DNA of 57,923 bases, counting the filler, from Acidimicrobiia bacterium (GTDB lineage: Bacteria; Actinomycetota; Acidimicrobiia; Spongiisociales; UBA11373), in the NCBI GenBank assembly GCA_040878325.1. It is 3 parts of 3 records of this genome, joined end to end, with 100 filler letters (N's around TTAATTAATTAA, not from the genome) between each part and the next. Parts side by side here need not be neighbours in the genome. Positions count along the whole stretch, not along the records: positions 21,784 to 51,189 come from JBBDMM010000006.1; 2 more parts are not named here. One strand, written 5' to 3'. Each line of letters starts with the position of its first letter. The stretch's first letter is position 1. Positions 13,428 through 43,268 of this stretch are shown here, piece after piece. The position numbers and the translations under genes were made by a program. The notes beneath the pieces were generated by a model that was not told the origin of the DNA, searched no databases, and was given only the letters and a program-made list of their open reading frames with translations.

Positions 13428-13519
13428 TCAAGAGTCAAGATTCAAGAGTCAAGAGTCAAGATTCAAGAGTCAAGAGTCGTGGGCTTGCCTCTGGTCTTGA
13501 TTCTTGACTCTTGACTCTT
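13428..13519. repeat. Inverted heptamer arrays (TCAAGAK)x7 and (TCTTGAY)x3-4
   Basis: 13428-13478 and 13495-13519 are reverse-complementary and overlap the mazG 3' end. Confidence 0.9.
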
Positions 13520-21543: not shown

Positions 21544-21683
21544 GAGTCAAGAATCAAGAATCAAGACGCCCGTTCGCTCGGCCGCCGAAGCGTCTGCGGG
21601 GATTCGCCCTTCGCCCTTCGCCTTTCGCTGACTCTTGACTCTTGACTCTTGACTCTTGACTCTTGACTCTTGACTCTTGACTC
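21544..21683. repeat. Heptamer arrays (TCAAGAA)x3, (TTCGCCC)x3-4 and (TGACTCT)x~8 running into the contig end
   Basis: Read directly; the last array ends at the N-gap. Confidence 0.9.
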
Positions 21684-21783
21684 NNNNNNNNNNNNNNNNN
21701 NNNNNNNNNNNNNNNNNNNNNNNNNNNTTAATTAATTAANNNNNNNNNNNNNNNNNNNNNNNNNNNNNNNNNNNNNNNNNNNN
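21684..21783. other. Artificial contig join (N-run with TTAATTAATTAA linker)
   Basis: 100-nt gap with an all-frame-stop linker at 21728-21739. Confidence 0.97.
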
Positions 21784-22395
21784 ATCAGCCAGGCGGTCGC
21801 CCTTACCGGCACCGGTGACGCCGCCGCCTTCCGCCGCCGGCACGGCCTGAGCGGCCCGATCGTCCTCTTCGTGGGCCGCAAGATCGAATCGAAGGGATAC
21901 CAGGTAATGCTGGCGGCTGCCAGCCGCCTGGCCGAGACGCGCCCGGACGTGACGGTCTGCCTCCTGGGTTCGCGGGCCGGCGAGGGGCGCGGCGCGAGAT
22001 CCGGCAACGTGCTCGACCTCGACGACGTTACCGAGTCGGAGAAGAACGACGCATTCGCAGCGGCGGCGCTCTTCTGCCTCCCGAGCGTTGCCGATGTATA
22101 CCCTTTAACCGTGGTGGAGGCCCGACTCAGCGGCGTTCCCATCGTCGTCGGGCCCTTCCCCGGCGCCGAGGAGGTGGTGCGCCACCAGGTCGACGGCCTC
22201 ATCGTGCCGGCCAACCACGAGGCCGTTGCCGCCGCCGTTGACTCGTTGCTCGCCGATCCAGCGGCTGCCCGCGCCATGGCGGCGGCGGGACTCGCCCGGG
22301 CCAGGGAGGAGCACGCTCCCGAGCGGGTCGGTCGCGAGGTGCTGGCGGCCTACCAGGAGCTAGGCGGCCGGGCGCGCGAGTCAGCCGAGCCATGA
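21784..22395 (+). CDS. GT4-family glycosyltransferase, 5'-truncated by the gap
   Basis: VLFVGRK..KG, FCLPSVADVYPLTVVEARLSGVPIV, EVVRHQVDGL. Confidence 0.82.
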   Translation: MSQAVALTGTGDAAAFRRRHGLSGPIVLFVGRKIESKGYQVMLAAASRLAETRPDVTVCLLGSRAGEGRGARSGNVLDLDDVTESEKNDAFAAAALFCLPSVADVYPLTVVEARLSGVPIVVGPFPGAEEVVRHQVDGLIVPANHEAVAAAVDSLLADPAAARAMAAAGLARAREEHAPERVGREVLAAYQELGGRARESAEP

Positions 22396-23114
22396 GGGCC
22401 ATCATGCTTGCCGGCGGCCGCGCCACCCGGCTCGAATCGCTCTCTCCGACTGTCCCGAAGGCATTGACGCCGATTATCGGGCACCTACTTCTCGACATCC
22501 TGCTCTCCCAGCTGTGTGAGGCCGGATATGACCACGTCACCCTCTGCGTGGGCCATCTCGAGGAAGTGGTGCGTGCCCACGTCGGGGACGGGTCGAGGGC
22601 GGGCGTGGCCGTCGACTACGTAAACGACCACGGGAGGCTCGGCACGGCGGGTCCGCTCCAGCTGGTCGATGCCTGGGAGGAGCCCGCTCTGGTGCTTAAC
22701 GCCGATCTCCTCACCGACCTAGCATTCGGAGAAATGGCAGCCAGGCACGCGGCAAGCGGGGCCGCGATTACCCTGGCCGTGCGCGAGTACGTCACGCACC
22801 TTGACGTTGGCGTCGTCCAATGCGACGGCGACGGGGGGGTCGTCGCAATCGTGGAGAAGCCCGAGTTGCGCCAGCTCCTCACTTTGGGCATTTACATGAT
22901 CGACCCCGAGGTACGCTCCCACCTGCGCCCCGCCCAGCGAACGGACATGCCGGAGCTTGTCAATAGGGTGATCGAGTCTGGTGGCCACGTCCGGACCTTC
23001 GTCCATAGCGGCCGCTGGCATGACATCGGCACGCCCGCCGGCCTCGGCGCCGCGGAGGACACGCTGGGCGCTTGCCCGGCGGCGTTCGGCGTCACGGAGC
23101 GGACCGGGCCATGA
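22392..23114 (+). CDS. Sugar-phosphate nucleotidyltransferase
   Basis: MLAGGRATRL..PKAL, LGTAGPL, LNADL, EKP, WHDIG. Confidence 0.9.
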   Translation: MRAIMLAGGRATRLESLSPTVPKALTPIIGHLLLDILLSQLCEAGYDHVTLCVGHLEEVVRAHVGDGSRAGVAVDYVNDHGRLGTAGPLQLVDAWEEPALVLNADLLTDLAFGEMAARHAASGAAITLAVREYVTHLDVGVVQCDGDGGVVAIVEKPELRQLLTLGIYMIDPEVRSHLRPAQRTDMPELVNRVIESGGHVRTFVHSGRWHDIGTPAGLGAAEDTLGACPAAFGVTERTGP

Positions 23115-24880
23115 GCGACCTAGGCAGCGCAGCGCCCCCCCTGCTGGGTTTCAATTACCACCCGTCGTCTGGCGGTTGCCGCTATTGGACCCGGTTTCGC
23201 GCGGACGAGATCCGAGCCGACTTCGAGGCCATGGGCGCGGAGGGGTGGAACGTCGTTCGGTTCTTCGTCTTCTGGGCCGACTTCGAGCCGGAGGTGGGCC
23301 GCTACAACGAGGAGGCATTCGCCCATCTCGGCCAGATGGCCAGCATGGCGGCATCGGCCGGCCTACGGTGCATCCCTTCCATCCTCACGCTCTGGATGAA
23401 CGGCCAATTGCTCGACCTCCCGTGGCGCGGAGGCCGGGACTTGATCGCCGACCCAGAAGTGCGGACCCGTGCCCGGGAGCTCGCCCGTCGCGTAGCGGCG
23501 ACGCTCGGACCCGTCGGCAACGTAGCCTACTACGACCTCGGTGACGAGCTCCCTAACGTTCTGCCGGCACGGCGCGCTGAGCCGGACGCCGTCCGCGCCT
23601 GGTACGCGGAGATGGCCGACGCGATACGCTCGGCCGATCCAGGAGCTCTTGTCATCCAGGCGAACGAGGCGGCGGTGCTCGACGCGGCGCCGGCCTTCGG
23701 CCCGCCCACGCAGCAGGGCGTGCTCGACGCGGTGGCGCTGCACGGGTTCCCCCTCTGGTCGCGGCTTGGCATCACAGGCGCCGACGTCTACGCCGCCAGC
23801 GTCTACCCAGCATTCCTGGCCGCCGTCGCCTCTGCGTTCGGCCCCGCCCTCGTCGACGAGTTCGGCACATACGGAATGATGGCCGACGCGGCCGCCCGCC
23901 ATGTCGGCGCGGCGGCGGCGAGCGTTCTGGCAAGGGGCGTTCAGGGGCTGGTCTCTTGGTGTTGGAAGGACATCACGTCCGATGAGTGGCCTTACATCCG
24001 ACGGCCGGGGGAACGCGACGCCGGTTTCCGAACCGCTGACGGCGTTGCCAAGCCGGCATACGCAGCCCTGCGGCACGCTATCCAGTCAGCTGCTGCGCCG
24101 AGCTTCCACGCCGCCTCTCCGCAGGTCGGGATCGCCCTCGGGGCCGATGGCCGGTTGGCGAGCGCTCCCGCGTCGCTCTTCGGCTGCTATCTCGCTCTCC
24201 TCGCCTCGCATCACCGGCCGGCCTTTTTCACCGGCCTGGCGCACCTCGACCCTGAGCGATTCCCCTTCGTCGCGTGGCCCGGAGTTCGGTCGTTGCATCT
24301 GGATGAGTTGGAGGCTCTAGAGGCATATGCCGCGGCTGGCGGCGTGGCGCTTGTCTCTTCCCGCGCTCCCGCGCCCGGCACGGGGGGCGAGGGCCTTTTC
24401 GGGCTCGACGTGGACGGCTTCGGTACCGATCCAGATGCCCGGCCCATCATCGAGCTTCCGGGTGGAACGGTGCACCTCGGCCCCGTTCCCGAGGACGCCC
24501 TGCCCTATCCGATTGTTCGGGTCGACACCGCCGAGGTGCTTGGCCGGTTTGAGGCAGGTGATCCCGCGGTCACGGTGAAACGCCACGGCGACGGCTGCCT
24601 CTACTTCGTGAACGCGCCGTGCGAGGCGACGGCACCGGTGGGCGCCATCGGGGCGCCAGCGCCCGCCGAGCTGTACCGGCAGCTGCTGGCGTACGCAGGT
24701 TTCGACTCCGGGATTCGGGCGCCTGCTGGGGTGGAGGTGATCGTCGGGTGCGACGGCTCAGCCGTCGCCATCAACCACTTTCCGAAGCCGGTGGCCGGCG
24801 AGCTGAGCTTCTTGAGCACCTCCCTTCACGTATCCTTGGAGGCGAAGGAGGTCGCCCGGGTCGGAGGTGCTGTACCGTGA
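23111..24880 (+). CDS. Clan GH-A glycoside hydrolase (GH5/GH42-like) with a C-terminal trimerisation-like domain
   Basis: GFNY, NVVRFFVFWADFEP, DLGDEL (putative acid/base), LVDEFG (putative nucleophile); ATG 23111 overlaps the upstream stop. Confidence 0.75.
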   Translation: MSDLGSAAPPLLGFNYHPSSGGCRYWTRFRADEIRADFEAMGAEGWNVVRFFVFWADFEPEVGRYNEEAFAHLGQMASMAASAGLRCIPSILTLWMNGQLLDLPWRGGRDLIADPEVRTRARELARRVAATLGPVGNVAYYDLGDELPNVLPARRAEPDAVRAWYAEMADAIRSADPGALVIQANEAAVLDAAPAFGPPTQQGVLDAVALHGFPLWSRLGITGADVYAASVYPAFLAAVASAFGPALVDEFGTYGMMADAAARHVGAAAASVLARGVQGLVSWCWKDITSDEWPYIRRPGERDAGFRTADGVAKPAYAALRHAIQSAAAPSFHAASPQVGIALGADGRLASAPASLFGCYLALLASHHRPAFFTGLAHLDPERFPFVAWPGVRSLHLDELEALEAYAAAGGVALVSSRAPAPGTGGEGLFGLDVDGFGTDPDARPIIELPGGTVHLGPVPEDALPYPIVRVDTAEVLGRFEAGDPAVTVKRHGDGCLYFVNAPCEATAPVGAIGAPAPAELYRQLLAYAGFDSGIRAPAGVEVIVGCDGSAVAINHFPKPVAGELSFLSTSLHVSLEAKEVARVGGAVP

Positions 24881-25569
24881 CGGCAACGCAGCGCTCGCGG
24901 GTGGCCGAGGTGTGCAGGATGCGCGCTCTGGAGGCCGCTGGGTCCTCCGTCAGAGTGTGGTATCTGCCCGGAGCAGCGCAGCCCGCCTCCCTCCAGAAGG
25001 GTGCCGACCTTCGCCATGCCGCGATCGCAGCGGTCCTGGCGTCCGCTCTGGACCCTAACTCGGACGACACGGTGATCGACCATAGGTGCGCGTCGTGCGG
25101 AGGCTCCGACCACGGCCAACCCACCCTCCGAGGGCGCGGGGAGCTGGCGGTAAGCATCGCACGGGGAGGCGGCGACTTGGTCGTCGCCCTGGCCGAATCA
25201 CCCGTGGGCATCGACATGGAGCCGCCGAACTCAGCGGATGCCGTCCTCGAGGTGGCACCGCGGATCATGACCGATGTGGAGTGGCGGTCGCTCGAGGTTC
25301 TTCCCGCGGCGGACAGGGCACGCCGGGCGCTGGTGCTGTGGACGGCCAAGGAAGCGGCGCTTAAGGCGGCAGGCACCGGGCTGCCGGGAGGGCTGGCCAA
25401 CGTCGAGTGCGAAGTGGTCGAAGGACGGCTGGTGGCAGTTCGGTTGCTCGGGCCGCTGCGCCATCTCCAGCGAGAGCAGTGGCGGGCCCGCACTACCACG
25501 GGCTGCCGCGGGGTCGTGACCACGGTTGTGCTCGGCCAGGGGCCGCCACGCCGGGGAGATTGGCGATGA
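24877..25569 (+). CDS. Sfp-type 4'-phosphopantetheinyl transferase
   Basis: CASCGGSDHGQP, PVGIDME, WTAKEAALKAAGTGL; GTGA overlap with the upstream gene. Confidence 0.9.
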   Translation: MTATQRSRVAEVCRMRALEAAGSSVRVWYLPGAAQPASLQKGADLRHAAIAAVLASALDPNSDDTVIDHRCASCGGSDHGQPTLRGRGELAVSIARGGGDLVVALAESPVGIDMEPPNSADAVLEVAPRIMTDVEWRSLEVLPAADRARRALVLWTAKEAALKAAGTGLPGGLANVECEVVEGRLVAVRLLGPLRHLQREQWRARTTTGCRGVVTTVVLGQGPPRRGDWR

Positions 25570-26600
25570 GGGCGGTCCGGCTAATGGCGCCCGGCCACGT
25601 CGTTGTCGACCGCGATGCTCCGGAACCGGAGCTGCGCGACGCCGGCGACTGCATCATCGAGGTCGATGTCGCCGGCATATGTGGCACGGATCTTCACCCG
25701 TACCGCGGGCACATCGCCAACTTCACGCCCCGCACGATCATGGGTCACGAATTCGTCGGCCGGATCGTCGCCGCCGGGAGCGGCGTGGAGCGGCGGCGGC
25801 TCGGTGAGCTGGTCGTGGTGTCCGACCTGGTCGCTTGTGGCGCCTGCGCGTACTGTGCGGCCGACCAGCATTACCAGTGCCGCGAGGTGCAACTGTTCGG
25901 CTACGGCGACGTGGTCGGCGCCTACCTCCCGGGTGGTCAGGCGGAGCGGGTGCGGGTGCCCCGCGCCGACCTTGCCACGTTCCCCGTGCCCGAAGGCCTC
26001 TCGCCCCGGTCAGCCGTGTTCGCCGCCGATGTCCTCACGACCGCGTTCGCCGCGGTCGAATTTGCCGCGGGCGAGCGGAGCGGCAGCCTGGCGGTCGTTG
26101 GGTGCGGCCCCGTTGGCCTAGCCGTCGTGCTGTGTGGCCTGTGGAAGGGGTTCGAACGAATCGTGGCGATCGACACTGACGCGTCCCGTCGGGTTGCGGC
26201 ATCCCGTCTTGGCGCCACGGGGGTGGCCGCCGATGCCGACGAGGCCGCCGAGCTGCTGCCGACCCGCGGCGCCCACGCCGTCGTGGAGGCCGTGGGCGCG
26301 AGCCAGGCCCTGGCCACGGCTGTGGAGATCGCCGGGCCTCGAGCCTGGATCTCCAGCGTGGGCGCGCCGCACGGAACCGGGGCTTCGCTGCCCGCTGAGA
26401 CCGCCTTCGGACGGGAGCTGACCCTCCGGTTTATCGTCGGCAATCCCCTCGCCCTTGCTCCCCGCGTCCTCAGCCTGATGGCCAGCGGTGAGCTCGACCC
26501 CGCTCCGATCGTGAGCCACGTCTTGGCCCTCGACGACGCCCCTGCCGGCTACGCCGCGTTCGACCGACGGGGCGCTGTCAAGGTCTTGCTCGAGCCATGA
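25566..26600 (+). CDS. Zn-dependent alcohol dehydrogenase (MDR family)
   Basis: GICGTDLH, GHEFVG, CGACAYC..C structural Zn site, GGQAE, GCGPVG. Confidence 0.92.
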   Translation: MRAVRLMAPGHVVVDRDAPEPELRDAGDCIIEVDVAGICGTDLHPYRGHIANFTPRTIMGHEFVGRIVAAGSGVERRRLGELVVVSDLVACGACAYCAADQHYQCREVQLFGYGDVVGAYLPGGQAERVRVPRADLATFPVPEGLSPRSAVFAADVLTTAFAAVEFAAGERSGSLAVVGCGPVGLAVVLCGLWKGFERIVAIDTDASRRVAASRLGATGVAADADEAAELLPTRGAHAVVEAVGASQALATAVEIAGPRAWISSVGAPHGTGASLPAETAFGRELTLRFIVGNPLALAPRVLSLMASGELDPAPIVSHVLALDDAPAGYAAFDRRGAVKVLLEP

Positions 26601-29600
26601 CCGCCCTCGCCTCGGCAGAAGTCGCCTCGCTGATGGCCGAAGTGCTCAAGCTGAAAGACTTCGCCGTCGAGGATGACTTCCTCACCTCCGGCGGCGACTC
26701 ATTGCGAGTCGTCCAGCTCGCAGTACGGATTGCGGAGCGGCTCGGCGACCCGATCGACGCGCGGGGCTTCGCCGCCCTTGTCACCGGCATCTTCGACCGA
26801 CGCACTGCAGCGAGCATCGCACCGCTCACCGGCGAACTGACCGCCGCGCCGGTGGCCGCCGCGCCCCAGCCGTCCGAGCCGGCAACCCTCTCGGCCCAAC
26901 AGCACCAGATTTGGATCCACCGGCGCGCCAACCCGGACTCCGCCGCATACAACGTAGTCAACGTTTTCGACTTGGTTGGTCCGGTGGACTCCGGATCCCT
27001 TGAGACTGCCCTTCGGTCCGTTGCGGGGCGCCACCCGGCGCTGTTGACGGCGCTGGACACGCATGCCGGCCTGCCGGCGACGTCGCGTCACGACCCGGAG
27101 GGTATCTCCGTGGTCGTAGCGCCGCGGGCATCGGGCGAGGCTGCCGCGTTCGCCACAGTCGACACGATCGCCGCGACCCCGTTCTCCTTCGGGGAGCTGC
27201 CGATACGCTGCCACCTCGTGCCCTACGGATCGGGTGAGGCCCACCTGCTGATGTTTGTCATCGACCATGCGAGTTGCGACGGGTGGTCGATGCCGATCTT
27301 CTACCGCGAGCTCAGCGTCCTTTATGGCGGCGCCCGGCTTCCCGATCCTCCGCCGACCCCTGCCGCCGTCAGGCATGCCGGCGACGCCGCCGAATGGGCA
27401 GACCGGCTGCGACCCATCCCCCCGCCTCTGGATCTCGACCCGACTGTCAGCCGAGGGGTTCGCGACTTCGCGGGCGCCGTCCACTACACGATGCTGGCAC
27501 CGGATCTGGTCGACCAGCTGCGAGCGTGGCTAGCCGCGCGGTCGGCCACCCTCTTCATGGGGCTCATGACATGCTTCCAGCTCGCGCTCAGTGACCTCAC
27601 CGGTCGGTCCCGGTTCCTGCTCGGCGTGCCCGTAGCCAATCGCGGTGGCCAGCACTCCGAACGCGCCGTCGCTTACCTCGCCAACACGATGGTGCTGCAG
27701 GCCGTTGTCGAGGACAGCTCCAATTACGCGGGACTGCTGGGCACGGTCCGCGCCAACGTTATCGACGGCCTGGTCCACCAGTCCGCGCCCTTCATGGACC
27801 TAGTCGAGGAGCTACGCCCGCCGCGCGACCCGACCCGAACCCCGCTGATCGACGTATTGTTTGTCATGCAGAACTCGGCTCCCGTGGCCTTGGAACTTGC
27901 CGGATGCTCGGTTACGCAGCGGCGCTTCGACAACGGCACGGCCAAGTTCGACCTGACCCTTGAGGCTCATGAGACCGGGGGCGGCGTCGGTCTCCGCTGG
28001 GAGCGCGCCGCGGCGCTGTCACCAGCGATCGTAGATAGCGTCATCGCTCGCTTCGAGCGGCACGCCACGGCGATGGCGGCCGACCTACCTCGGCTGCGCC
28101 CGCCAAAACAACCGCCGCGCCCCGGGCCCCCGCAAGACCGTTCCATCGGAGCCGCCTTCGCCCGGGTCGCTAGCGAAAGGGCGGATCAGGCGGCGCTCGT
28201 GACCGACAACGGGACCACGACGTTCGCCGAGTTGCACCTTCAAGCGGCGGCCGTGGCGGAGAAGCTCCTGCAACAAGGGCTCGGACCCGGCAGCCGGATC
28301 GGGGTTCTCCACGAGCGAACCCCTGAATGGGTCGCCGCTGCGATCGGCACCTGGTTGGCCGGCGGCATCTACGTTCCGCTCGATCCTGCGCTGCCCGACG
28401 GCGCGCTGAAGCGGATGATTTCGGCCGGAGGGGTCGCCCATGTGGTCGCATCAGCGGCCGCCGCCGAGCGGGCGGCGGGACTCGGCCCACCCGTGAGCCT
28501 GACAGGCGAGATCCAGGCGCTTCCCCCCGGATCCAAGCTGATGCCACCGCTGGAAGCCGGTCCGGCCGGTCCCGCATATGTCGTGTTCACCTCCGGCTCC
28601 ACAGGGGCTGCGCGAGGCGTGATCGGTCACCATGCCGGCCTGCTCAACCGCATTGCCTGGATGCACAACGGATGGCCGGTCGCAGAAGGCGAGCTTGGAT
28701 GTCTGAGAACTGGGATCGGTTTCATTGATTCGCTCACCGAGCTGCTCGGCCCCATGCTCGCCGGCCGGCCCAGCCTGGTCGTCCCCGATTCGGCGGGTCG
28801 GGCCGCTACGGAGCTGCTTGAGCTGCTTCGCCGCCACAAAGTGTCCCGGCTCGTGATCACCCCAAGCTATCTGCGACTTCTGCTAGTCGAGTTCCCCGAG
28901 CGGTTTGCCGCCCTGACCGGGCTAAGCATCTGCGTGGTCAGCGGGGAGCGGCTGACCGCCGACGTGTGCATCCGCTTCTACCGGCTCCAGCCGGGCGCGG
29001 TGCTGCTCAACCTGTATGGGACCTCCGAAGTTGCCGGCGACGTGACTTGGTATGACACCCGCGCCCTCGCACCGCTTGCCGATCCCGTCCCAATCGGGAG
29101 GCCGTTACCCGGCTGCACGGTGAGCATTGAAGACGAGCAGGGCCAGCCCGTTCCGGGCGGGAGTGAAGGTGAGCTAGTCGTCAGCGGCGTCCAGGTGGCA
29201 CTCGGCTACACAGGTGCCCCGTCGCCGGGCCGGGCGAGCTTCGCTGAGCGCGCCGGTGTGCGTCGGTTCCGAACAGGCGATCTCGGGCGACAGCGTCCCG
29301 ACGGGGCCATCGAGTACGTAGGGCGGATCGACCGAGTCGTCAAGGTGCGTGGCATCGCGGTCGACCCCGACGGTGTCGAGGCGATGCTGCAGGAGCTGCC
29401 CGGCGTAACCGGAGCGGCGGTCATCCCCTGCCATGGATCCGACGGCTCTTGGCTGCACGCCTGGATCGAGCCGGAGGCGGACGTCGACGCGATCCGAGCT
29501 GGCCTGCTTCGCGATGCCCCAGCACACATGGTCCCAGCTGTGATCTCAGCGGTGCCGGTTCTGCCGCGGACTCCCTCGGGCAAGCTCGACTACGTAAGGC

Positions 29601-29938
29601 TGGGCGGTCCGGCGCACCAGGCGCCGGCGGCACCGGCCGCCAAGCTGGGGCCTCTTGAGGAAGCGGCCCGGGACGTGATCTGTGAGGTGCTGGGAGTCGC
29701 GACCGTAGGGATAACCGACAACTTCTTCAGCTCCGGCGGCGACTCGTTGCGGGCCAACAGGGTGCTCGCCCGCATAAGCGACCGCTTCAAGCTCGGCGAT
29801 CTTGACTTTGCGAGCTTCTATCGAGAGCCCACGGTCACGGGCCTGGCAACACTTGTCGCTGCCGAACTCATGCGGGGGACCGATCCCGAAGTGTCGGCAG
29901 TAGTGCGCGCTCGGTTGCGGGCGAGAGGGTCTCCGTGA
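26597..29938 (+). CDS. Non-ribosomal peptide synthetase, T-C-A-T
   Basis: Two GGDSL PCP motifs; C domain DHASCDG; A domain FTSGSTG, NLYGTSE, RTGDLG, PSGKLD. Confidence 0.93.
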   Translation: MTALASAEVASLMAEVLKLKDFAVEDDFLTSGGDSLRVVQLAVRIAERLGDPIDARGFAALVTGIFDRRTAASIAPLTGELTAAPVAAAPQPSEPATLSAQQHQIWIHRRANPDSAAYNVVNVFDLVGPVDSGSLETALRSVAGRHPALLTALDTHAGLPATSRHDPEGISVVVAPRASGEAAAFATVDTIAATPFSFGELPIRCHLVPYGSGEAHLLMFVIDHASCDGWSMPIFYRELSVLYGGARLPDPPPTPAAVRHAGDAAEWADRLRPIPPPLDLDPTVSRGVRDFAGAVHYTMLAPDLVDQLRAWLAARSATLFMGLMTCFQLALSDLTGRSRFLLGVPVANRGGQHSERAVAYLANTMVLQAVVEDSSNYAGLLGTVRANVIDGLVHQSAPFMDLVEELRPPRDPTRTPLIDVLFVMQNSAPVALELAGCSVTQRRFDNGTAKFDLTLEAHETGGGVGLRWERAAALSPAIVDSVIARFERHATAMAADLPRLRPPKQPPRPGPPQDRSIGAAFARVASERADQAALVTDNGTTTFAELHLQAAAVAEKLLQQGLGPGSRIGVLHERTPEWVAAAIGTWLAGGIYVPLDPALPDGALKRMISAGGVAHVVASAAAAERAAGLGPPVSLTGEIQALPPGSKLMPPLEAGPAGPAYVVFTSGSTGAARGVIGHHAGLLNRIAWMHNGWPVAEGELGCLRTGIGFIDSLTELLGPMLAGRPSLVVPDSAGRAATELLELLRRHKVSRLVITPSYLRLLLVEFPERFAALTGLSICVVSGERLTADVCIRFYRLQPGAVLLNLYGTSEVAGDVTWYDTRALAPLADPVPIGRPLPGCTVSIEDEQGQPVPGGSEGELVVSGVQVALGYTGAPSPGRASFAERAGVRRFRTGDLGRQRPDGAIEYVGRIDRVVKVRGIAVDPDGVEAMLQELPGVTGAAVIPCHGSDGSWLHAWIEPEADVDAIRAGLLRDAPAHMVPAVISAVPVLPRTPSGKLDYVRLGGPAHQAPAAPAAKLGPLEEAARDVICEVLGVATVGITDNFFSSGGDSLRANRVLARISDRFKLGDLDFASFYREPTVTGLATLVAAELMRGTDPEVSAVVRARLRARGSP

Positions 29939-32900
29939 TGAGACCCGATGCGGCGGGCGCCGCGGCCTCCGACGACATGACCGTCGATGCGGCCGCCCTG
30001 CTCGAGCTAGAGCCTGACGAGCAGCGTTATCTCCTCGACATGCTGCAACGCGCCTACCAACCCACACACGGGGTACCTTCCGGGGCCGTCCCGCCCGGAG
30101 TTCTGTCAGATGAGCAACGCCAAATCTGGCTCGTCGAGCGGACCGTCGACGCTGGCAGCGCCTACAACATCAGCGTCGCAGTTCGCCTTAAAGGCAGCTT
30201 TGACGAGGACCGGCTTGCTCGCGCCGTGGCCAGCACAATCGACCACCACCCGGCGTTGACTACGGTATTTGCGGCGGCCACCGACGGGGAGCCGGTCGCC
30301 CGAGCGGGCACACGCGCCGAGCGCACCATCGTGGCTGTTGAGATCTCGGCATCGGACGAACAAGCGGCCCTGGGCGAGGCCACCGCGTTCGTCGCCCAGT
30401 CATTCGACCTAGCGGTCGGTCCCCTGATACGCGCCCGCGTCTGGCGCATATCGACCGACCACGGGCTGCTCGTCATCGCCGCCCACCACATTGTCTGCGA
30501 CGGGGCCTCCTTTGAGGTGCTCCTGCACGATGTAGCGCGGCGCTACGAGGAACGGACCGAGTCCGCCTATCTCGACGGCAACTCCGGTCCGCGATCGGCC
30601 GACACCGCCGCCGTCGAGCGCATAGCGGCCGAACACGCGACCATCCCTCCGTTTCTTGACCTCCCGGGCGATGCCCAGCCCGGCGCCGATCGCACCTTCG
30701 AGGGCGGCGCTGTCCACCGCCGGTTCCCCGGCGACCTCGAACGCCGCCTCAGGCAGGTGGCAGAGGAGCTCGCCGTCACCCTGAGTTCCCTGGCCCTTGC
30801 CGGATTCGCGGCTCTCTTGTATCGGTACACCGGCCGGGAGCAGTTCGCCGTCGGTGTGCCGTTTTCAACTCGCCGAACTGCGGCCGACGCAGGGCGAGTT
30901 GGCCTTTACGTGAACTCGCTTCCAGTGCCGTTCGACTGCACTGTGGATATGTCATTCGCCGTGCTCGCGCGAACGGCCCACCGCAAGCTCGCAGAGCGCA
31001 TCGCGCTAGCTCCTACCGTCCCTTTCGCAGCCCTGGTCGAGCGAGTTAACCCTCCCCGCCACCCCACCAGGAACCCGCTATTCCAGGTCGAGTTTGCCTT
31101 TCAGTCGCGGCTGGGGCTGCCGACCACCATGGGCGGTGCTTCCCTCGACCCGGTGCCGATTCCGAGCGGGGCATCGAAGTTCGACCTGTCGCTCGACGTG
31201 ATTGAGACCTCCGACGGGCTCACGGCCTCCTTCGAATTCGCCACAAGCCTGTTCTCCGAGGACCGCATCGACCGGATGGTTGATCATTACCTGGGCCTGC
31301 TTCACCACTTCGCCGACGCGCCGGGCCAGACGCTGGGCACACCCCCCCTGCTCTCCGCTTCGGAGGCTGAATGGGCTGAGAAGGCAGGAGGGCTCACCGC
31401 GGCTGCCGCATACGATCGCCACGAGCCCCTCCTGGCGCGGCTTCGGCGCCATGTCCGAAGGACGCCGGACAGCGTCGCTGTGCTCGACGACCGCGAGTCA
31501 ATAACCTTCGGCGATCTCATATGCCGCGCCGAGGCGGCGGCCAGCGCCCTCGCCCGGGCAGGCGTCAGACAAGGGCAACGAGTGGCGCTCTTCCTCCCCC
31601 GCTCGGCACAGGCCGTCGTCTTCGTGCTCGGAGCCTGGCTGCGCGGTGCTGCCTTCGTGCCCATTGACGCCGACACTCCGCCGCGTCGGGTCGAACATAT
31701 CCTCGACCTCGCGCGGCCTGCGGCGATTGTGGTCGACGACGATACGGCGACCAGGATCGCGGCGCGCTCGGAGCCGCTCGTTCCGGTCAGCGGCTTGATG
31801 CTCGACTCGTACGGCAGCCCACCCTTTGGCAGCGTCGAATCCGGTGATGCTGCCTACTTGATATTCACTTCCGGCACGACCGGCGCGCCGAAAGGGGTCG
31901 AGGTGACTCACCGCGCCCTTGAGACCATGACTACCGCCTGGGCCTCAGAGTACGGGCTCGAAGCTCAACCAGCTCGTTACCTTCAGCTCGCCCGCATATC
32001 CTTCGACATCTTCGTTGGAGACCTTTGCAGGTCGTTCCTGTGCGGTGGGACGCTGGTGGTCTGCCCCGACGAGACCATCACCGACCCCGAACGGCTCCTC
32101 GCGCTGATCGAGTCAGCCCGAGTGGATACCGTTGAGTTCGTCCCCGCCCTACTCCGGTTCGTCCTGGACTACCTGGCTGCCAAGGGGCGGCGGCTACCTG
32201 CCCTGCAGCGCCTCGTGGTCGGCTCCGATATGTGGTCCGTGGACGACGCCCGGAGGATGCTGGAGGCTGTGCCGCCCGGCACACGCTGCTTTTGCTCGTA
32301 CGGGACCACAGAGGCTGCTATCGATAGCACCTACTCCGAACTCGACGGCGACGCCCTTCCCCGCCACGGCCCAGTGCCGATTGGGCGCCCCTTCCCAGGT
32401 GTCGGCATCCGCGTCCTAGACGTTGCCGGGCACGACTGCCCGATCGGCATACCCGGCGAGTTGGTCATCGCAGGGCCAACGGTCAGCGACGGCTACCTTT
32501 TTGGGGCCGGGGCCAGGGATCGCCGATTCCACACGAGCGAGGTCGTGCCCGGGTTCTCTGAGGTGCGGACCGGGGACCGCGCCTACTGGCTCAAGAGCGG
32601 CGAGCTCGTCTGCCTTGGTCGTGATGACGACCTCATAAAGATTCAAGGCGCCCGCGTCGATCCGGTTGAGGTAGAGCGGGTCCTCCGGGCGGTGCGCTCA
32701 GTCGCCGATGCCGCGGCCGTTGCAATCGGGCTACCCGGAGACCAGGAGCTTGTCGCGGTGCTCGTGGCGGCGGACGGCGCCATGGACCCTGTCGCCGAGA
32801 CCAAACGGGAGCTGTCCGAGACACTACCGAGGAGTGCTGTCCCCACCCGCTGGTTAGTGACCGAGAGGCTTCCCACAACCCCTAACGGGAAACTCGACCG

Positions 32901-35661
32901 GCCCGCCGTCCGTGCGCTCGCCGAGGCCGGGAACGAACCCGTCGGCACCGTAGCACCACGCACCGCACTAGAGCGCTCACTCCACGAGATTTGGAGCAGC
33001 GTGCTCCCAGGACGCTACTTCGGAGTGACCGAGAATTTCTTCGTCATCGGCGGGCGGTCGCTGCTGGCCGCACGGTGCGCGTGGCGTATCCGCGATACGC
33101 TGGGCCTTGACGCCTCGACGGCGGACATCTTCCACGCCCAAACGATCGAAGCCCTTGCCGAACGCCTCGTGCGGCCCGGCCGCGCCAAGGAGGTCGCGCT
33201 AGCTCGCCCGGTTCTGTCGCTCCCGGTCGAGATCGGCTTCTCGGGCTCGACGGTGCCCGTGAGGGAGCGGCGACGGGTGCTACTGACCGGCGCCACCGGC
33301 CTCGTTGGCTCGGCGATCGCCCGATCCCTGGGCGACGCCGGCATCGCGGTGACACACCTCGTTCGTGCCGACACGACGGAGGAAGCCGCCCGTCAACTCC
33401 GGGCCAGCGAGGCGGGCCGGCCGGGTCGGCTCGACATCGTGATCGGAGATCTGAGCCGACCACTTCTCGGCCTTGACTCGAACCGCTTCGGCGTACTCGC
33501 GGCGTCAGTCGACGGCGTGGTGAACGCCGCGGCGTGGGTCAGCTTCGTGCTCCCCTACGAGGAGCTGGCCCCGACTAACGTCGGGGGCGTAGTTGAGCTT
33601 CTCCGGCTCTGTGGCTCGGACCAGGGGCGGATCCTGCCTTTGGTCCAAGTGTCGACGGCGTCCGCGGCCCGAGCGGGCGACGCTGCACCGGCGGGGGGCT
33701 ACAACGCCACGAAGTGGGACGCCGACTTCCTCATCAAGCAAGCCGCAGCCTTGGGCCTGCCGGCCACGATCATCCAGCCGGGCTTCGTGGTAGACCCCGG
33801 CCGGCCGCGCACCACGGATCTGCTCTGGGCCTTCCTCGCAACTTGCTGCCAGACTGGTATGGCCCCGCGGATGAACGGGCGTCTCAACCTCGTGCCAGCC
33901 GGGCGTCTCGGCGATATGGCAGCGGCCGCAATTGGCGGAACTCTAGGTTCCGGCGTTTGGGTGGCGGCACACCCGCACCCCGCACGGTGGAGCGACGTCT
34001 ACCGCGCGCTCGCACGCGCCGGCTGGCCGCTCACCATCGTGGAGCCGGACACCTGGCGAGGCTCCGTGGAGGAGCCGGGCCTGCCCATCGAGCCGTTTCT
34101 CACCCTCCTTGATAAGGTTCCGATCGACGAGCTGCTCGAGGACGACGATCTGCACACACACCCGCTAGCCGCGCCGGCGGATGGCGTCTGGCAACCCGTC
34201 GTGGATTTGGTCGTTGATTCGGTGGCCGCCCTCCAGCCGATGGCGAGGGCTCCTGGGCAGCCGACGACGGCGACTAGGCCGCACACCGTGGTGGACGCGG
34301 TTGGTGCCCTGCTGGTCGACTTCGAGGAACGGAACCGGCCGGTCAACTCAATCGTGGTCCACGACCCTGTTCGGGTCATCGCCGAGGCCGCCGCGCTTGA
34401 TCGCATCCCGCTGGAGGATCGAGCGAGCATGCCTCTATTTGGTGTACCGATCACGGTGAAGGAGTCGATCGACGTGGTTGGCTACCCGAGCACGGCTGGC
34501 GACCCGCATGTCTGCGGCGATGCGACCGCGACCGATGCACCCTCCGTGCTCCGACTCAAGGCAGCAGGCGCCGTCATAATCGGCAAGACGAACGTTGCAT
34601 ATCTTCTGGAGGACTGGCAGGCGCGCAACCCACGGTACGGAGTGACTAGCAATCCATATGACCACCGACACACCGCCGGGGGGAGTTCCGGCGGCGCGGC
34701 GGCGGTGGCCCTGAGGTTGAGCGCGGGCGACCTCGGGAGCGACCTCATCGGGTCGCTGCGCGTGCCTGGCGCATTCTGCGGCGTCTTCGCTCACCGGGCG
34801 ACGGATGGTGCTTTGTCGCGGGCCGGCGAGGGGCGGATTGTCCCACGCGACCTTCCCGGTAGCGTCCTCGGGAGCCAGGGTTTCGCTGCGGCGTCTACAT
34901 CGATACTTACCACGCTCCTAGAGGTCGCCGGCGCTGGGTCGATCCACAAGCCTGACCCCGTCAGTTGGCTCAGTTCACGCGACCGCCTCTCCGGCCTACG
35001 CTTGGCCGTGCTCCCGGAGCTTGCCTGGCTCCCACTAAGCGCAGCAACGCGCGCCGCGGTGGAGCTTGCTGCGGCCCGTGCGGCCGACCTAGGCGCCCGA
35101 GTGGTCGAGGCCGCGCCGCCCCGTTGGGGCGAGGAACACATTGCAGTCACCTGCTCGCTGCTCGGCGCCCTCACCCTCGCTCGTCGTCCAGCCGCGGAGC
35201 GGAACGCCATGGTTGAGGCGCTAGCGGCACGCCGTGCCCCGTTCGACGCCGATTGGAGGCGGGGCATTACCGCCTCCGTCATGGACTACTTCGTCTGGCT
35301 GTCGCTGCGGGAGATCATCCGCGAGGGCTACGCCGAGTTTTTCGCCGAGCACGACCTGCTCCTCGCGCCGATCACATTGGGCACTGCTTTCGGTCACATG
35401 GCCGACACATCGCTGTGGCCCACGGGAGAGGCGTCCCAGCCCACCCTCTCAATCAACGGCACAGCAGTCCCCTACGGATGGCAGCTCATATACCCTTCGA
35501 TCGCCTCTCTTCCTGGGCTGCCCGCGACAGCTTTCCCTGTCATGATGGACAGCGGCCTTCCGGTCGGACTCCAGGTGATAGGCCCCGAGGGTGGCGACTT
35601 CGCGTCCATTGAGCTGGCAGGCCGTCTGTCCGACGCCGGTTCGCCTGCGGCGGCGGGCTGA
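29935..35661 (+). CDS. Non-ribosomal peptide synthetase, C-A-T-R fused to an amidase-signature domain
   Basis: HHIVCDG; FTSGTTGAPKG, YGTTE, RTGD, NGKLD; GGRSL; R domain TGATGLVG and YNATK; amidase GVPITVKE, GGSSGG, GSDLIGSLRVP. Confidence 0.92.
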   Translation: MMRPDAAGAAASDDMTVDAAALLELEPDEQRYLLDMLQRAYQPTHGVPSGAVPPGVLSDEQRQIWLVERTVDAGSAYNISVAVRLKGSFDEDRLARAVASTIDHHPALTTVFAAATDGEPVARAGTRAERTIVAVEISASDEQAALGEATAFVAQSFDLAVGPLIRARVWRISTDHGLLVIAAHHIVCDGASFEVLLHDVARRYEERTESAYLDGNSGPRSADTAAVERIAAEHATIPPFLDLPGDAQPGADRTFEGGAVHRRFPGDLERRLRQVAEELAVTLSSLALAGFAALLYRYTGREQFAVGVPFSTRRTAADAGRVGLYVNSLPVPFDCTVDMSFAVLARTAHRKLAERIALAPTVPFAALVERVNPPRHPTRNPLFQVEFAFQSRLGLPTTMGGASLDPVPIPSGASKFDLSLDVIETSDGLTASFEFATSLFSEDRIDRMVDHYLGLLHHFADAPGQTLGTPPLLSASEAEWAEKAGGLTAAAAYDRHEPLLARLRRHVRRTPDSVAVLDDRESITFGDLICRAEAAASALARAGVRQGQRVALFLPRSAQAVVFVLGAWLRGAAFVPIDADTPPRRVEHILDLARPAAIVVDDDTATRIAARSEPLVPVSGLMLDSYGSPPFGSVESGDAAYLIFTSGTTGAPKGVEVTHRALETMTTAWASEYGLEAQPARYLQLARISFDIFVGDLCRSFLCGGTLVVCPDETITDPERLLALIESARVDTVEFVPALLRFVLDYLAAKGRRLPALQRLVVGSDMWSVDDARRMLEAVPPGTRCFCSYGTTEAAIDSTYSELDGDALPRHGPVPIGRPFPGVGIRVLDVAGHDCPIGIPGELVIAGPTVSDGYLFGAGARDRRFHTSEVVPGFSEVRTGDRAYWLKSGELVCLGRDDDLIKIQGARVDPVEVERVLRAVRSVADAAAVAIGLPGDQELVAVLVAADGAMDPVAETKRELSETLPRSAVPTRWLVTERLPTTPNGKLDRPAVRALAEAGNEPVGTVAPRTALERSLHEIWSSVLPGRYFGVTENFFVIGGRSLLAARCAWRIRDTLGLDASTADIFHAQTIEALAERLVRPGRAKEVALARPVLSLPVEIGFSGSTVPVRERRRVLLTGATGLVGSAIARSLGDAGIAVTHLVRADTTEEAARQLRASEAGRPGRLDIVIGDLSRPLLGLDSNRFGVLAASVDGVVNAAAWVSFVLPYEELAPTNVGGVVELLRLCGSDQGRILPLVQVSTASAARAGDAAPAGGYNATKWDADFLIKQAAALGLPATIIQPGFVVDPGRPRTTDLLWAFLATCCQTGMAPRMNGRLNLVPAGRLGDMAAAAIGGTLGSGVWVAAHPHPARWSDVYRALARAGWPLTIVEPDTWRGSVEEPGLPIEPFLTLLDKVPIDELLEDDDLHTHPLAAPADGVWQPVVDLVVDSVAALQPMARAPGQPTTATRPHTVVDAVGALLVDFEERNRPVNSIVVHDPVRVIAEAAALDRIPLEDRASMPLFGVPITVKESIDVVGYPSTAGDPHVCGDATATDAPSVLRLKAAGAVIIGKTNVAYLLEDWQARNPRYGVTSNPYDHRHTAGGSSGGAAAVALRLSAGDLGSDLIGSLRVPGAFCGVFAHRATDGALSRAGEGRIVPRDLPGSVLGSQGFAAASTSILTTLLEVAGAGSIHKPDPVSWLSSRDRLSGLRLAVLPELAWLPLSAATRAAVELAAARAADLGARVVEAAPPRWGEEHIAVTCSLLGALTLARRPAAERNAMVEALAARRAPFDADWRRGITASVMDYFVWLSLREIIREGYAEFFAEHDLLLAPITLGTAFGHMADTSLWPTGEASQPTLSINGTAVPYGWQLIYPSIASLPGLPATAFPVMMDSGLPVGLQVIGPEGGDFASIELAGRLSDAGSPAAAG

Positions 35662-35668
35662 GGCTGCG

Positions 35669-38425
35669 ATGACCCACGGCGCCCCCGAACCCGGCACGTT
35701 GCGTCCCCCGATCGCGCAGGCTGGGTGGATTGTGGTGCGCGGCGCGGGCCAGCACAACCTCAAGTCGATCGACGTTACGATCCCGCGCGACGGCGTCACG
35801 GTGATTACAGGCGTGTCAGGGTGCGGAAAATCGTCGCTGGCCTTCGACACGATCTACGCCGAGGGGCATCGGCAGTATCTCGAAAGCTTGTCGCCCTACG
35901 CGCGCAGCTCCCTCTCCAAGCTCCCCAAGCCGGTGATCGAGTCGATCACCGGCCTCACGCCGACCATCGCTATCGAGCAACGCAAGCTCAGCCGAAACCC
36001 CCGCTCGAGTGTCGGCACCATCACGGAGGTATCAAATTACATGAGGCTGCTCTTCGCCAGGCTCGGTCGCCATGCATGCGCCGGATGCGGAGATGAGGTC
36101 TTCCCGCGAATCGCAGCGGAGCACGTCGATTGGCTCCGCAGCCATGGCGATCAGCATCCGCTGGTGGTCGCGCCGCTTGACAGCGACGAAGGCAGCCTGA
36201 CGCTCGAACCGGGATGGGCAAGCCGGACGACGTCGAAGGTAGAGCGGCTGCTCACCGGCGCGCTGCATGCCGGGCGCGTGATGGTGGTGCGCGACAGCAC
36301 CGGCGTCGTGAGGTACGTCGCCCCCGGCTGGATCTGTGCCACGTGTGGGACGGAATCCGTGGCTACATCGTCGGACTACTTCACCTCCAACTCGCCGCGG
36401 GGGATGTGCGAGGCGTGCGATGGACTCGGCTACACGGTCGCGGTCGACCAAAGGCTTTTGGTGCTTGACGACCGGGAGTCGGTCCGCTCCGGGGCGCTAG
36501 CGTTCTTCGGCGACAGGCGCCGTAGCAAGAAGACCTGGTGGCCGCTCCGGCGCATGCCAAGGCTGCTAGAACTTGCTGGCGCCAACCTCGACACCCCATG
36601 GCGCGAGATCCCCTCGAGCGTCAGGCGGTTGATCCTTACCGGCACCGCGGGGGCTGACCTGCCACCGCCTGTCGCGACCGACGTTACTCGCGAACCATTC
36701 ACGGGCCTGACGTCGGAGATCGAGCGGCTTTATCGAGATGCCAACTCGGCGAAGCGTAGGGACGCATATGCATCCCTAATGGCAACTGCGACCTGCCCGG
36801 CGTGCGGCGGGGCGGGCCATGCCCGGGCCGCCCTCACGGTCCGCCTCGGCGGTCTCAACATCGCCCAGGTCAATTCACTCACCATTGATGAGTTGCAGAA
36901 TTGGTTCACGGACGTGGAAACCGAGCTGGCTGGGTCGTTTCTCCATCAAATCGGCGCCGAACTGCTCGAGGAAGTCCGACTCCGGACGGAGTTCATGATC
37001 GACGTTGGTCTCGACTACCTCTCGCTCGATCGCAAGGCACCTTCGCTCTCGGTCGGCGAAGGTCAACGGCTAAGGCTTACTCGCCAGCTCGGGTGCGGCC
37101 TCGTAGGGATCACCTACATCCTCGACGAACCGTCGATCGGCCTCCATGCCCGTGACATGGGAAAGCTCATCGGGGTCCTGCGTCGGCTCCACACGGCAGG
37201 GAACACCGTTCTCGTGGTTGAGCACGACCGAGAGACGATCGAGGCGGCCGACTTCATCCTCGATCTCGGACCGGGCGCCGGTGTCCTCGGCGGCCGGCTG
37301 GTGGCGTCAGGCACCCGGGACCAGGTTGCCGCGACAGCCGACTCGCCCACCGGACAGTTCTTGCGCGGAACGCTCTCGGTCGAATCGGGGCGTTCGGGGA
37401 AGAGGAGGCCGCCGGATGCCTGGCTCACCGTCGAGGGTGCCAACCTTCATAACCTCGCCGACATCACCGTCCCGATCCCCATTGGGCGTCTCACCTGCGT
37501 CACCGGGGTCAGCGGCAGCGGCAAGACCTCGTTGACAAGTGGGTCGATCGGGCCGGCCGTCTCCGCTGCGATCCGCGACGGACAAGTGGGACCTGGGCCC
37601 TACCGAGGTATCACGGGCTGGGAGTCAATGACGCGAGTCGCGACCGTTACCCAACAGTCGATCGGCCGATCCGCCCGTTCGACCCCGGCGACATACATCG
37701 GAATATTCGACGAAGTACGAAAGACTTTCGCGAAGCTGCCCGAGGCCCGCGCCCGGCGCTACTCGACCGCTCAGTTCAGCTTCAACACCGACCGGGGAGG
37801 CCGATGCGGCCGCTGTCTCGGCACAGGGTCGATCTGGGTCCAGATGCACTTTCTCGCCGACGTCGCGGTCGACTGCCCGACTTGCGAAGGGCGGCGGTTC
37901 GCCCCCGAAACGCTCGAAATCCGTTACGGCGGCCTGAACATCGCCGATGTCCTCGACCTGGAGGTGGGCCAGGCCCTAGACCACTTTGCCGAACATACGC
38001 GAATCGTGGGGCCTTTGCAGGTCCTCGCCGACGTCGGCCTCGGCTACCTGCGCCTCGGTCAGGAAACGTCCACCCTCAGTGGCGGCGAGGCCCAGCGGCT
38101 GAAACTCGCCCGAGAGCTGACCCAGCCTGGCGAAGGGCGCACACTGTACCTGATCGACGAGCCGACCACAGGTCTCCACGCCTTCGACATCCAACTCCTC
38201 GTGGACGTCCTCGAGAGGCTCGTCGATCGGGGCGACACGGTCGTCGCCGTGGAACACGACATCGACTTCATCGCCACGGCGGACTGGATCGTTGACCTCG
38301 GACCCGGTGGCGGGCGCGCTGGCGGACAGCTCGTCGCGTCCGGGCCCCCGGCGGAGCTCGCCAATCATCCAGCCAGTGCGCTGGCGCCCTACCTGGCGAG
38401 GCGCCTTGCTGTCGCAGAGCGCTGA
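35669..38425 (+). CDS. UvrA-like protein (DrrC/UvrA2-type putative self-resistance)
   Basis: GAGQHNLK, GVSGCGKSS, LDEPSIGLH, second GVSGSGKTS and LSGGEAQRLKL, Zn-finger CxxC pairs; no uvrB or uvrC nearby; start set at ATG 35669. Confidence 0.9.
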   Translation: MTHGAPEPGTLRPPIAQAGWIVVRGAGQHNLKSIDVTIPRDGVTVITGVSGCGKSSLAFDTIYAEGHRQYLESLSPYARSSLSKLPKPVIESITGLTPTIAIEQRKLSRNPRSSVGTITEVSNYMRLLFARLGRHACAGCGDEVFPRIAAEHVDWLRSHGDQHPLVVAPLDSDEGSLTLEPGWASRTTSKVERLLTGALHAGRVMVVRDSTGVVRYVAPGWICATCGTESVATSSDYFTSNSPRGMCEACDGLGYTVAVDQRLLVLDDRESVRSGALAFFGDRRRSKKTWWPLRRMPRLLELAGANLDTPWREIPSSVRRLILTGTAGADLPPPVATDVTREPFTGLTSEIERLYRDANSAKRRDAYASLMATATCPACGGAGHARAALTVRLGGLNIAQVNSLTIDELQNWFTDVETELAGSFLHQIGAELLEEVRLRTEFMIDVGLDYLSLDRKAPSLSVGEGQRLRLTRQLGCGLVGITYILDEPSIGLHARDMGKLIGVLRRLHTAGNTVLVVEHDRETIEAADFILDLGPGAGVLGGRLVASGTRDQVAATADSPTGQFLRGTLSVESGRSGKRRPPDAWLTVEGANLHNLADITVPIPIGRLTCVTGVSGSGKTSLTSGSIGPAVSAAIRDGQVGPGPYRGITGWESMTRVATVTQQSIGRSARSTPATYIGIFDEVRKTFAKLPEARARRYSTAQFSFNTDRGGRCGRCLGTGSIWVQMHFLADVAVDCPTCEGRRFAPETLEIRYGGLNIADVLDLEVGQALDHFAEHTRIVGPLQVLADVGLGYLRLGQETSTLSGGEAQRLKLARELTQPGEGRTLYLIDEPTTGLHAFDIQLLVDVLERLVDRGDTVVAVEHDIDFIATADWIVDLGPGGGRAGGQLVASGPPAELANHPASALAPYLARRLAVAER

Positions 38426-39952: not shown

Positions 39953-39980
39953 TGCGGGCTCCTCTTGTGGCGGTGTTTCT

Positions 39981-40270
39981 GCAATGCGCGATGCGCGATG
40001 CGCAACGCGTTTCAAGGTCTGCTTGGGAATCTACTCAGGACCATCGACCTGGGGAGTGGCGACGCCCGTTCAGCCAGGAAGCGGCTGATCCTCGAAGTAG
40101 AGCTAGGCGCGTTTCTAGGACTCCGTGGGAATCCACTCAATTGGGCCTGAGGCATTCGCGATGCGCGGCGCGTTTCTAGGTCTCTGTGGGTATCCACTCA
40201 ATCGCGCCGGAGGCATCCGCGATGCGCGATGCGCGGCGCGTTCCAACGTCTGCTTGGTGATCGACCCGGT
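39981..40270. repeat. ATGCGCG heptamer arrays plus four degenerate ~33-bp repeats
   Basis: CGCGTTTC(A/T)AGG..TGGG(A/T)ATC(C/T)ACTCA-like units at 40006, 40108, 40169 and 40237. Confidence 0.8.
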
Positions 40271-40318
40271 CGGTTTGACGGGGTTCCCTCGCTGCGCTGA
40301 ACCTGATACATCGACTGG

Positions 40319-40839: not shown

Positions 40840-40851
40840 GAGCCGGAGTCC

Positions 40852-42147: not shown

Positions 42148-42208
42148 GTGAGTCCTGTGATCGGGGGGCGTGAAGGCTAGCGATGGGGACTGTGGCGAGC
42201 GGTGCGTC

Positions 42209-43225: not shown

Positions 43226-43268
43226 TAGGGGCTTTTGGCACTACGGCCCAATCATGTACCTCCCTAGT

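Follow-up and report, generated by a model that had tools for sequence, protein, structure and literature searches.

Antibiotics of the netropsin type bind DNA and are built from a pyrrole unit, 4-acetamidopyrrole-2-carboxylate (APC); the route to this unit from an amino sugar is encoded by a gene cassette that is already known and widespread (PMC12983305). Of the enzymes from the man cluster of Bacillus manliponensis, Man17 makes GDP-N-acetylglucosamine (GDP-GlcNAc), Man18 hydrolyses a GDP-aminopentose and Man15 carries out the dehydration to the pyrrole, all reported in vitro, and Man15 is proposed as a pathway marker and found in diverse clusters of unknown product (PMC12983305). Here we describe a cluster from an Acidimicrobiia bacterium (assembly GCA_040878325.1, referred to as G000; 2.21 Mb, 98.9% complete), part of which lies in the window, the whole 57,923-nucleotide stretch of DNA that was analysed. 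Judged by its gene content, the cluster carries the complete known route from amino sugar to pyrrole. Set on this known cassette is a new assembly line, in which a T-C-A-T protein and a C-A-T-reductase-amidase protein (C, condensation; A, adenylation; T, peptidyl carrier protein or PCP) are accompanied by a PF10014 dioxygenase and a UvrA-like gene. No earlier description of this assembly line was found in the open-access literature, a reach that leaves outside it subscription papers and the supplementary cluster tables of PMC12983305.

The window joins three pieces of the genome: positions 1-21683 from contig C5, 21784-51189 from C6 (G000:C6:99012-128417) and 51290 to the end from C7. The linkers at 21684-21783 and 51190-51289 are artificial; N/TTAATTAATTAA linkers stand at both joins, and an N-TTAATTAA-N block precedes 21784. 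The cluster is cut by the linker at 21784 and continues upstream on C6, off the window. Since the middle piece starts inside C6, genes cut at the linker are unbroken in the genome, and the apparent truncation of the glycosyltransferase (GT)-like gene at 21784 results solely from the joining of the pieces. In the genome the cluster is compact, with 14 genes in about 25 kb of a single contig, including its own phosphopantetheinyl transferase (PPTase) and resistance gene.

Along the contig, the cassette opens with a divergent aldehyde dehydrogenase gene (C6:90681-92096, minus strand), whose product is 50% identical to that of S. netropsis (379 bits, against 227 for the next paralogue). It is followed by genes for an AMP ligase (C6 ~92825-94297), a DegT-type C4 aminotransferase (C6:94294-95451; 39-45% identity with its man and S. 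netropsis counterparts), the PF10014 2-oxoglutarate/iron dioxygenase, which sits inside the cassette (C6:95476-96282), a nucleoside diphosphate (NDP)-sugar dehydrogenase (C6:96279-97601), an NAD-dependent epimerase/decarboxylase (C6:97594-98562) and a predicted GT4-like GDP-sugar hydrolase orthologous to Man18/Cgc10 (C6:98559-99623, 354 amino acids), the 3' part of which lies at window positions 21784-22395 on the plus strand (PF00534, E 2.7e-18). Also on the plus strand are a sugar-1-phosphate nucleotidyltransferase, the Man17/Cgc11 orthologue (22392-23114; PF00483, E 2e-30), a glycoside hydrolase (GH)42-like, putatively pyrrole-forming dehydratase of the Man15/Cgc13 family that serves as pathway marker (23111-24880, 589 amino acids), the PPTase (24877-25569; PF01648, E 1.7e-14; TIGR00556) and a zinc alcohol dehydrogenase (ADH), the Man14/Cgc17 orthologue (25566-26600). 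The genes for the nucleotidyltransferase, NDP-sugar dehydrogenase, decarboxylase/epimerase, C4 aminotransferase and GT-like hydrolase are thus all adjacent on C6, and both genes for oxidation of the alcohol to the acid (ADH and aldehyde dehydrogenase) are present in the cluster. Nearly all genes from the ligase to the second nonribosomal peptide synthetase (NRPS) overlap by a few bases, with 4-base ATGA/GTGA overlaps among those in the window, indicating translational coupling. A first-pass annotation confined to the window had placed a GT, a nucleotidyltransferase, a GH and a zinc ADH just upstream of an NRPS whose first PCP lacks an A domain. All of these are there, the PPTase between GH and ADH having been overlooked, and the dehydrogenase, epimerase, aminotransferase and ligase that it listed as missing lie directly upstream on the same contig, together with the aldehyde dehydrogenase.

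When the characterized proteins were used as queries against the genome, all seven from the man cassette (man14-20; 29-41% identity) and all eight from S. netropsis (36-50%) matched this cluster best. Identities to the B. manliponensis and S. netropsis proteins are 29% and 36% for the GT-like hydrolase, 36% and 42% for the nucleotidyltransferase, and 41% and 42% for the ADH, each being the best match of both queries in the genome. The GH-like protein (33% to Man15, 38% to the S. netropsis counterpart, E<=6e-81) is the only match in the genome for either; Pfam gives it a weak GH35 match only, and a fold search with its AlphaFold model (pLDDT 88) returned a GH5/GH42-type fold. The orthology to pyrrolamide enzymes bears out the earlier proposal that these genes build a pyrrole starter rather than glycosylate the product, and we hold with high confidence that the cassette makes APC.

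The distribution of the cassette was assessed with a GH profile built from an alignment of 26 relatives, which retrieved 92 loci (75 from genomes, 17 from metagenomes), each spanning up to 10 kb on either side of the GH, some of them less, with gene presence scored at E<=1e-5. Reference loci were those of B. manliponensis JCM 15802 (L011, the man cluster) and S. netropsis CECT 3265 (L020). Relatives of the cassette genes recur across the 92 loci (aminotransferase in 84, dehydrogenase and epimerase in 80 each, GT in 78, nucleotidyltransferase in 74 and ADH in 69), so the grouping of these genes is not due to chance. Relatives of the reductase, the PF10014 dioxygenase and the PPTase of this cluster were found in none of them. 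In a FastTree phylogeny of 92 GH sequences (87 locus GHs of at least 450 amino acids, ours, P0002, P0004 and two outgroups, five shorter ones having been dropped), our GH pairs with P0002 on a long branch nested in the family, weakly sister to the Bacillus group (support 0.90) and outside the Streptomyces group that contains S. netropsis. No full-strength match to the GH came from 40 relatives, and 400 genomes of the class yielded one strong and one weaker match.

Two further observations concern the marker itself. The GH occurs with cassette genes in three loci from Acidobacteriota/Thermoanaerobaculia records and a metagenome contig (L068, L069, L091) and in three from Ktedonobacteria (L009, L013, L021), hence outside Bacillota and Actinomycetota; the main text of PMC12983305 names just Bacillus and actinomycete clades. 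A Man15-family gene is also carried by nine large plasmids of Bacillus mycoides/wiedmannii (H1-H9), none of them closer.

Downstream of the cassette, the assembly line comprises NRPS1 (26597-29938, plus strand), with domains T0-C-A-T and no A domain before the first PCP (T0), and NRPS2 (29935-35661, plus strand), with domains C-A-T-thioester reductase-amidase. The pockets of A1 (IDTVVSLGDK) and A2 (DIGEVGSIDK) are both unlike the Cgc18-type pocket SVEQVGEVSK read from the S. netropsis locus, so the pyrrole acid must enter the line another way; identity to the Cgc18-type protein is just 30-35%. The AMP ligase falls in a clade of 45 (support 0.85) made up of ours and 44 APC-locus ligases, the man-locus enzyme among them, and containing no host ligases. 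Ligase loci (44 of 92) and Cgc18-type loci (17 of 92) do not overlap at the thresholds used. The six best matches of T0 are stand-alone PCPs of APC loci with which it has an insertion in common, and T1 and T2 match ordinary NRPS PCPs. Ligase and T0 thus group with cassette-linked ligases and PCPs, a pattern that speaks for the loading in trans on the first PCP suggested by the first-pass annotation, and they would constitute the APC loading pair, here with the PCP fused to the NRPS.

What the two modules add can be predicted from their pockets. A domains for alpha-amino acids conserve Asp235 (PMC11355689); in the alignment A1 has another residue there and an Asp at 236, and its pocket is found again in the 52%-identical P0217. 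A1 is predicted to take a non-alpha-amino acid, probably beta-alanine. The A2 pocket is ornithine-like, with eight of ten positions identical to the ornithine signature DVGEIGSIDK (PMC3992020). The reductase retains its nucleotide-binding and catalytic motifs (GxxGxxG, Thr and YxxxK), and a C-A-T-R-amidase fusion (R, reductase) with an ornithine-like pocket recurs in P0065 and, in part, in P0035; among 400 genomes of the phylum there was no reductase-amidase fusion and there were four amidase-only matches. Reads from sequencing run X1 mapped patchily outside the UvrA-like gene and say nothing on this fusion. The dioxygenase has PDB entry 9DQP as its best match (E 1.2e-44), and PF10014 holds free-amino-acid hydroxylases such as the lysine 4-hydroxylase GlbB (PMC9951290), no more than a lead for the enzyme of this cluster.

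In the congocidine pathway, deacetylation of the PCP-bound pyrrole has been proposed as the role of Cgc14 (PMC4047045), and the Cgc14-type protein of S. netropsis belongs to PF04909. The 98.9% complete genome studied here holds no Cgc14 homologue (no match below E 0.04) and no PF04909 match, and the fused amidase keeps the motifs of the Lys-Ser-Ser triad in alignment. Among the 92 loci, Cgc14 is present in 34 and an amidase-signature gene in 12, with none having both and 46 neither. All five amidase genomes tested are without a Cgc14 orthologue (best score 135 bits, against 174-590 for locus copies), and in one of five "neither" genomes an amidase gene lies 17 kb away from the GH on its contig. 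Among 1.84 billion representatives, our amidase is closest to P0061 (59%) and P0062 (45%), the latter 65% identical to amidases inside the APC cassettes of L087 and L089, and a tree of 159 sequences unites our amidase with the L087 and L089 cassette amidases in a clade of six (support 0.96). P0061, the GH relative P0002 and the NRPS relative P0217 each come from an ENA record of 4,239,454 bases and probably belong to one sister cluster with a stand-alone amidase. The earlier suggestion that the fused amidase replaces the deacetylase thus fits the distribution; its deacetylating role is a prediction, next to which stands the ClbL-like coupling considered below.

The right end of the genomic island that holds the cluster is formed by a second, UvrA-like ATPase gene (35669-38425, plus strand), probably for self-resistance. 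Of the 92 APC loci, 17 carry such a gene; our protein is 50-58% identical to 16 of these copies and 47% to the remaining one, and 41% identical to the genome's own UvrA on contig C12. UvrA-like genes are regarded as self-resistance markers for DNA-targeting products (PMC10413001). The region between the zinc-finger pairs, where UvrB binds, is about 45 residues shorter, yet present, in this protein, the criterion for class II UvrA (DrrC/Ecm16) being absence of the UvrB-binding domain.

Together, these features are best explained overall by a complete pyrrolamide-type cluster, a reading to which we give reasonable though not strong confidence. By transfer from characterized orthologues, the nucleotidyltransferase would make GDP-GlcNAc; dehydrogenase, decarboxylase/epimerase and aminotransferase would turn it into a 4-amino-pentose nucleotide; the GT-like enzyme would hydrolyse this nucleotide; the GH-like enzyme would dehydrate the sugar to a pyrrole alcohol; and ADH and aldehyde dehydrogenase would oxidise the alcohol to APC. 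The stand-alone ligase may then load APC on T0 of NRPS1, primed by the cluster's PPTase, after which module 1 would add beta-alanine or a similar non-alpha amino acid and module 2 ornithine (or lysine or arginine, perhaps hydroxylated beforehand by the dioxygenase). The reductase would free the chain as an aldehyde, an ornithine aldehyde closing to a cyclic imine, and the fused amidase would strip the N-acetyl group in place of Cgc14 and expose the aminopyrrole, with the UvrA-like protein presumably protecting the producer. The odds are slightly in favour of the whole line as drawn. Its likely product is an aminopyrrole-beta-alanyl-ornithinal or the corresponding cyclic imine, and it is most likely a mono-pyrrole, cationic DNA binder, DNA being the predicted target; the compound is probably an undescribed member of the netropsin-type family. 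A more tentative extension, which we think improbable but worth stating, is a pyrrolamide that reacts covalently: its warhead, a reductase-made cyclic imine of ornithine (or hydroxy-ornithine or lysine), would bond to DNA and would be joined to a minor-groove unit of the aminopyrrole-beta-alanyl type, the amidase acting as built-in prodrug unmasking or as ClbL-like coupling into a longer or two-headed binder. If this were true, C-A(Orn)-T-R-amidase would be a recurring, undescribed termination unit, of which three instances were found.

Several points weigh against this reconstruction. Characterized enzymes share no more than 29-50% identity with those of the cluster, and the long branch of the GH has a single sister. 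The assignment of A1 to beta-alanine is tentative, and open-access literature yielded no confirmation of the code. Compared with five of six aligned relatives, the reductase lacks about 40 residues in its C-terminal subdomain, and its sequence is compatible with release of either an aldehyde or an alcohol. The amidases of actinomycete cassettes group in another clade than ours, and the L031 amidase in a third; in the putative sister cluster the amidase stands alone, and no sister NRPS2-reductase was among the matches listed. Nearly half of the loci (46 of 92) have neither Cgc14 nor an amidase within 10 kb and man products stay N-acylated (PMC12983305), so deacetylation is not obligatory. As the loci are related to one another, the 34/12/0 pattern is not an independent test. 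Finally, no exporter gene lies within the island on which the cluster resides.

Among the alternatives, the one that survives best, though we judge it unlikely, keeps APC as the cassette's product and assigns the amidase a ClbL-like acyl transfer from a PCP-bound acyl group to an amine, adding more pyrroles or joining two halves, with or without deacetylation. ClbL has a coupling role, and its structure (PDB 8ES6, E 5e-48) is among the six best PDB matches of the amidase. Because these PDB relatives are urethanases and ClbL, hydrolysis is favoured, the hydrolytic urethanases scoring equal or higher, and coupling is also possible. The fused position of the amidase at the end of the line suits release or coupling, the recurrence of the fusion in P0065 and P0035 is in keeping with such a role, and no stand-alone C domain for pyrrole oligomerisation is found among the cluster genes; against this, the reductase already provides release, and in related cassettes the amidase is stand-alone and never beside Cgc14.

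Less probable still is a product resembling the manlipyrrolamides, without an electrophile, that keeps its N-acyl group or is reduced to the alcohol, the amidase serving in editing or detoxification and the reductase being a four-electron or weakly active enzyme. The shortened reductase C-terminus would agree with this, and manlipyrrolamides are mono-pyrrole, N-acylated and have a 3-aminopropenoyl second unit, much like the first two units predicted here (PMC12983305). However, the UvrA-like gene argues for a DNA-targeting product, and the man locus has neither an amidase nor a UvrA-like gene within 10 kb, its genome lacking such an amidase at E<=1e-60. A furan analogue or another sugar-derived ring is very doubtful. 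Proximicin-type compounds contain 4-aminofuran-2-carboxylate, and both the divergent GH lineage and the PF10014 dioxygenase, placed within the cassette and absent from all 92 other loci, could be taken in its favour, but the cluster does encode the C4 aminotransferase that would supply nitrogen to the ring. Ordinary glycosylation or polysaccharide genes beside an unrelated NRPS, as the generic family labels (GT4, NTP transferase, GH5/42 fold) might suggest, are scarcely credible given the whole-cassette orthology, the marker GH, the unbroken translational coupling from ligase to NRPS2 and the matching ligase/PCP pair.

We compared the cluster with known systems. With the congocidine/distamycin clusters (cgc of S. 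ambofaciens, pya of S. netropsis) it has in common all eight APC genes (36-50% to L020), the aldehyde dehydrogenase for the last oxidation and apparent loading of a PCP in trans. It lacks the Cgc18-type A-PCP-C protein, stand-alone C domains or PCP, and the Cgc14/Pya25 amidohydrolase, and has instead the AMP ligase, two modular NRPSs, terminal reductase, fused amidase, PPTase, dioxygenase and UvrA-like gene. No stand-alone C domain is present among the open reading frames (ORFs) of the island, the S. netropsis C domain matching only the two NRPS C domains, and no amidine or guanidinoacetate genes are present among them, no genome-wide search having been made for amidine genes. The congocidine/distamycin likeness noted at first pass extends to the precursor cassette and stops at the product, which can be neither compound because there is no Cgc18-type pyrrole A domain, no amidine genes were seen and the line ends in a reductase. 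The cluster appears to follow the congocidine and man pathways up to APC, as a member of the APC-cassette family that is not of congocidine/distamycin type.

Features in common with the man cluster (PMC12983305) are seven APC genes (29-41%), a related AMP ligase, which in locus L011 stands next to the dehydrogenase and a carrier protein, and mono-pyrrole logic with a three-carbon beta-amino second unit. The man cluster differs in oxidising the aldehyde with a xanthine-dehydrogenase-like complex, in being reported with 59 stand-alone ORFs (PMC12983305) and, over the 21.7 kb examined, in lacking a modular NRPS, a reductase, an amidase and a UvrA-like gene. Uncharacterized actinomycete APC clusters, for example those of Micromonospora carbonacea (L028), Lentzea (L055) and Nonomuraea (L048/L051), which probably correspond to clade III of PMC12983305, have the same-clade ligase, a T0-like stand-alone PCP, an amidase-signature enzyme without Cgc14 and often a UvrA-like gene and aldehyde dehydrogenase. 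Unlike ours, they encode PCP and amidase as two proteins, with the amidase falling in a different clade; within 10 kb, neither a reductase domain nor a PF10014 gene turned up in any of the 92 loci. Reductase-terminated, DNA-alkylating NRPS products such as pyrrolobenzodiazepines and saframycins combine an aromatic acid starter, a reductase-made aldehyde or imine and a UvrA-like gene; our cluster lacks their anthranilate, alkylproline and Pictet-Spengler genes, and they offer a working analogy only.

In the same-genus genome G002, only 4.2 kb separate the flanks C6:85673 and C6:115764, and between them lies another small NRPS-like gene. The cluster, with the restriction-modification-like and phosphotransferase genes beside it, is thus an insertion of 30 kb at a variable site. 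It appears to have been acquired as an island; the left part (G000:C6:85800-90465; L001 6789-11454; about 60% GC) contains a GHKL ATPase/restriction-like gene, a type II DNA methyltransferase and an APH-family phosphotransferase. At the same site in G002 (L115 14268-18450, G002:C7) the NRPS-like gene has an A-T organization. Ours is the sole NRPS cluster met in searches of the 2.2-Mb genome.

Next to the UvrA-like gene, dihydropyrimidinase and class III aminotransferase genes (38534-42291) were considered as cluster members and rejected, the dihydropyrimidinase being 94% identical and syntenic in the cluster-free G002 site. Together with a nitrilase-family hydrolase (50155-51162, minus strand), they belong to host pyrimidine degradation and could supply beta-alanine. 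Elsewhere in the window are a nitrous oxide reductase cluster (43287-49846, plus strand: nosZ, cupredoxin, nosD, ABC ATPase, permease and Rrf2 regulator) and a Gabija pair (53818-57392, minus strand; GajA, E 1.8e-186; GajB, E 2.6e-128) that follows the 3' terminal part of a gene for a type I restriction subunit. Intergenic tandem repeats, typical of the genome, lie at 49936-50154 (63-bp unit, 3.5 copies) and at 13428-13478, 21629-21683 and 40106-40228 (7-bp units; 61 bp twice), and an element of 96-100 bp located near 43130-43229 occurs again on C6 and C18.

How the precursor is made has been worked out, yet many marker-bearing clusters have products that are unknown (PMC12983305). This cluster is colinear enough for a structure to be predicted, making the prediction directly testable. 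It suggests an amidase-signature enzyme as a second solution to pyrrole deacetylation (or as a means of coupling) and an AMP-ligase/PCP pair as the APC loading route in non-congocidine clusters, and it points to a reductase-released, possibly DNA-reactive pyrrolamide.

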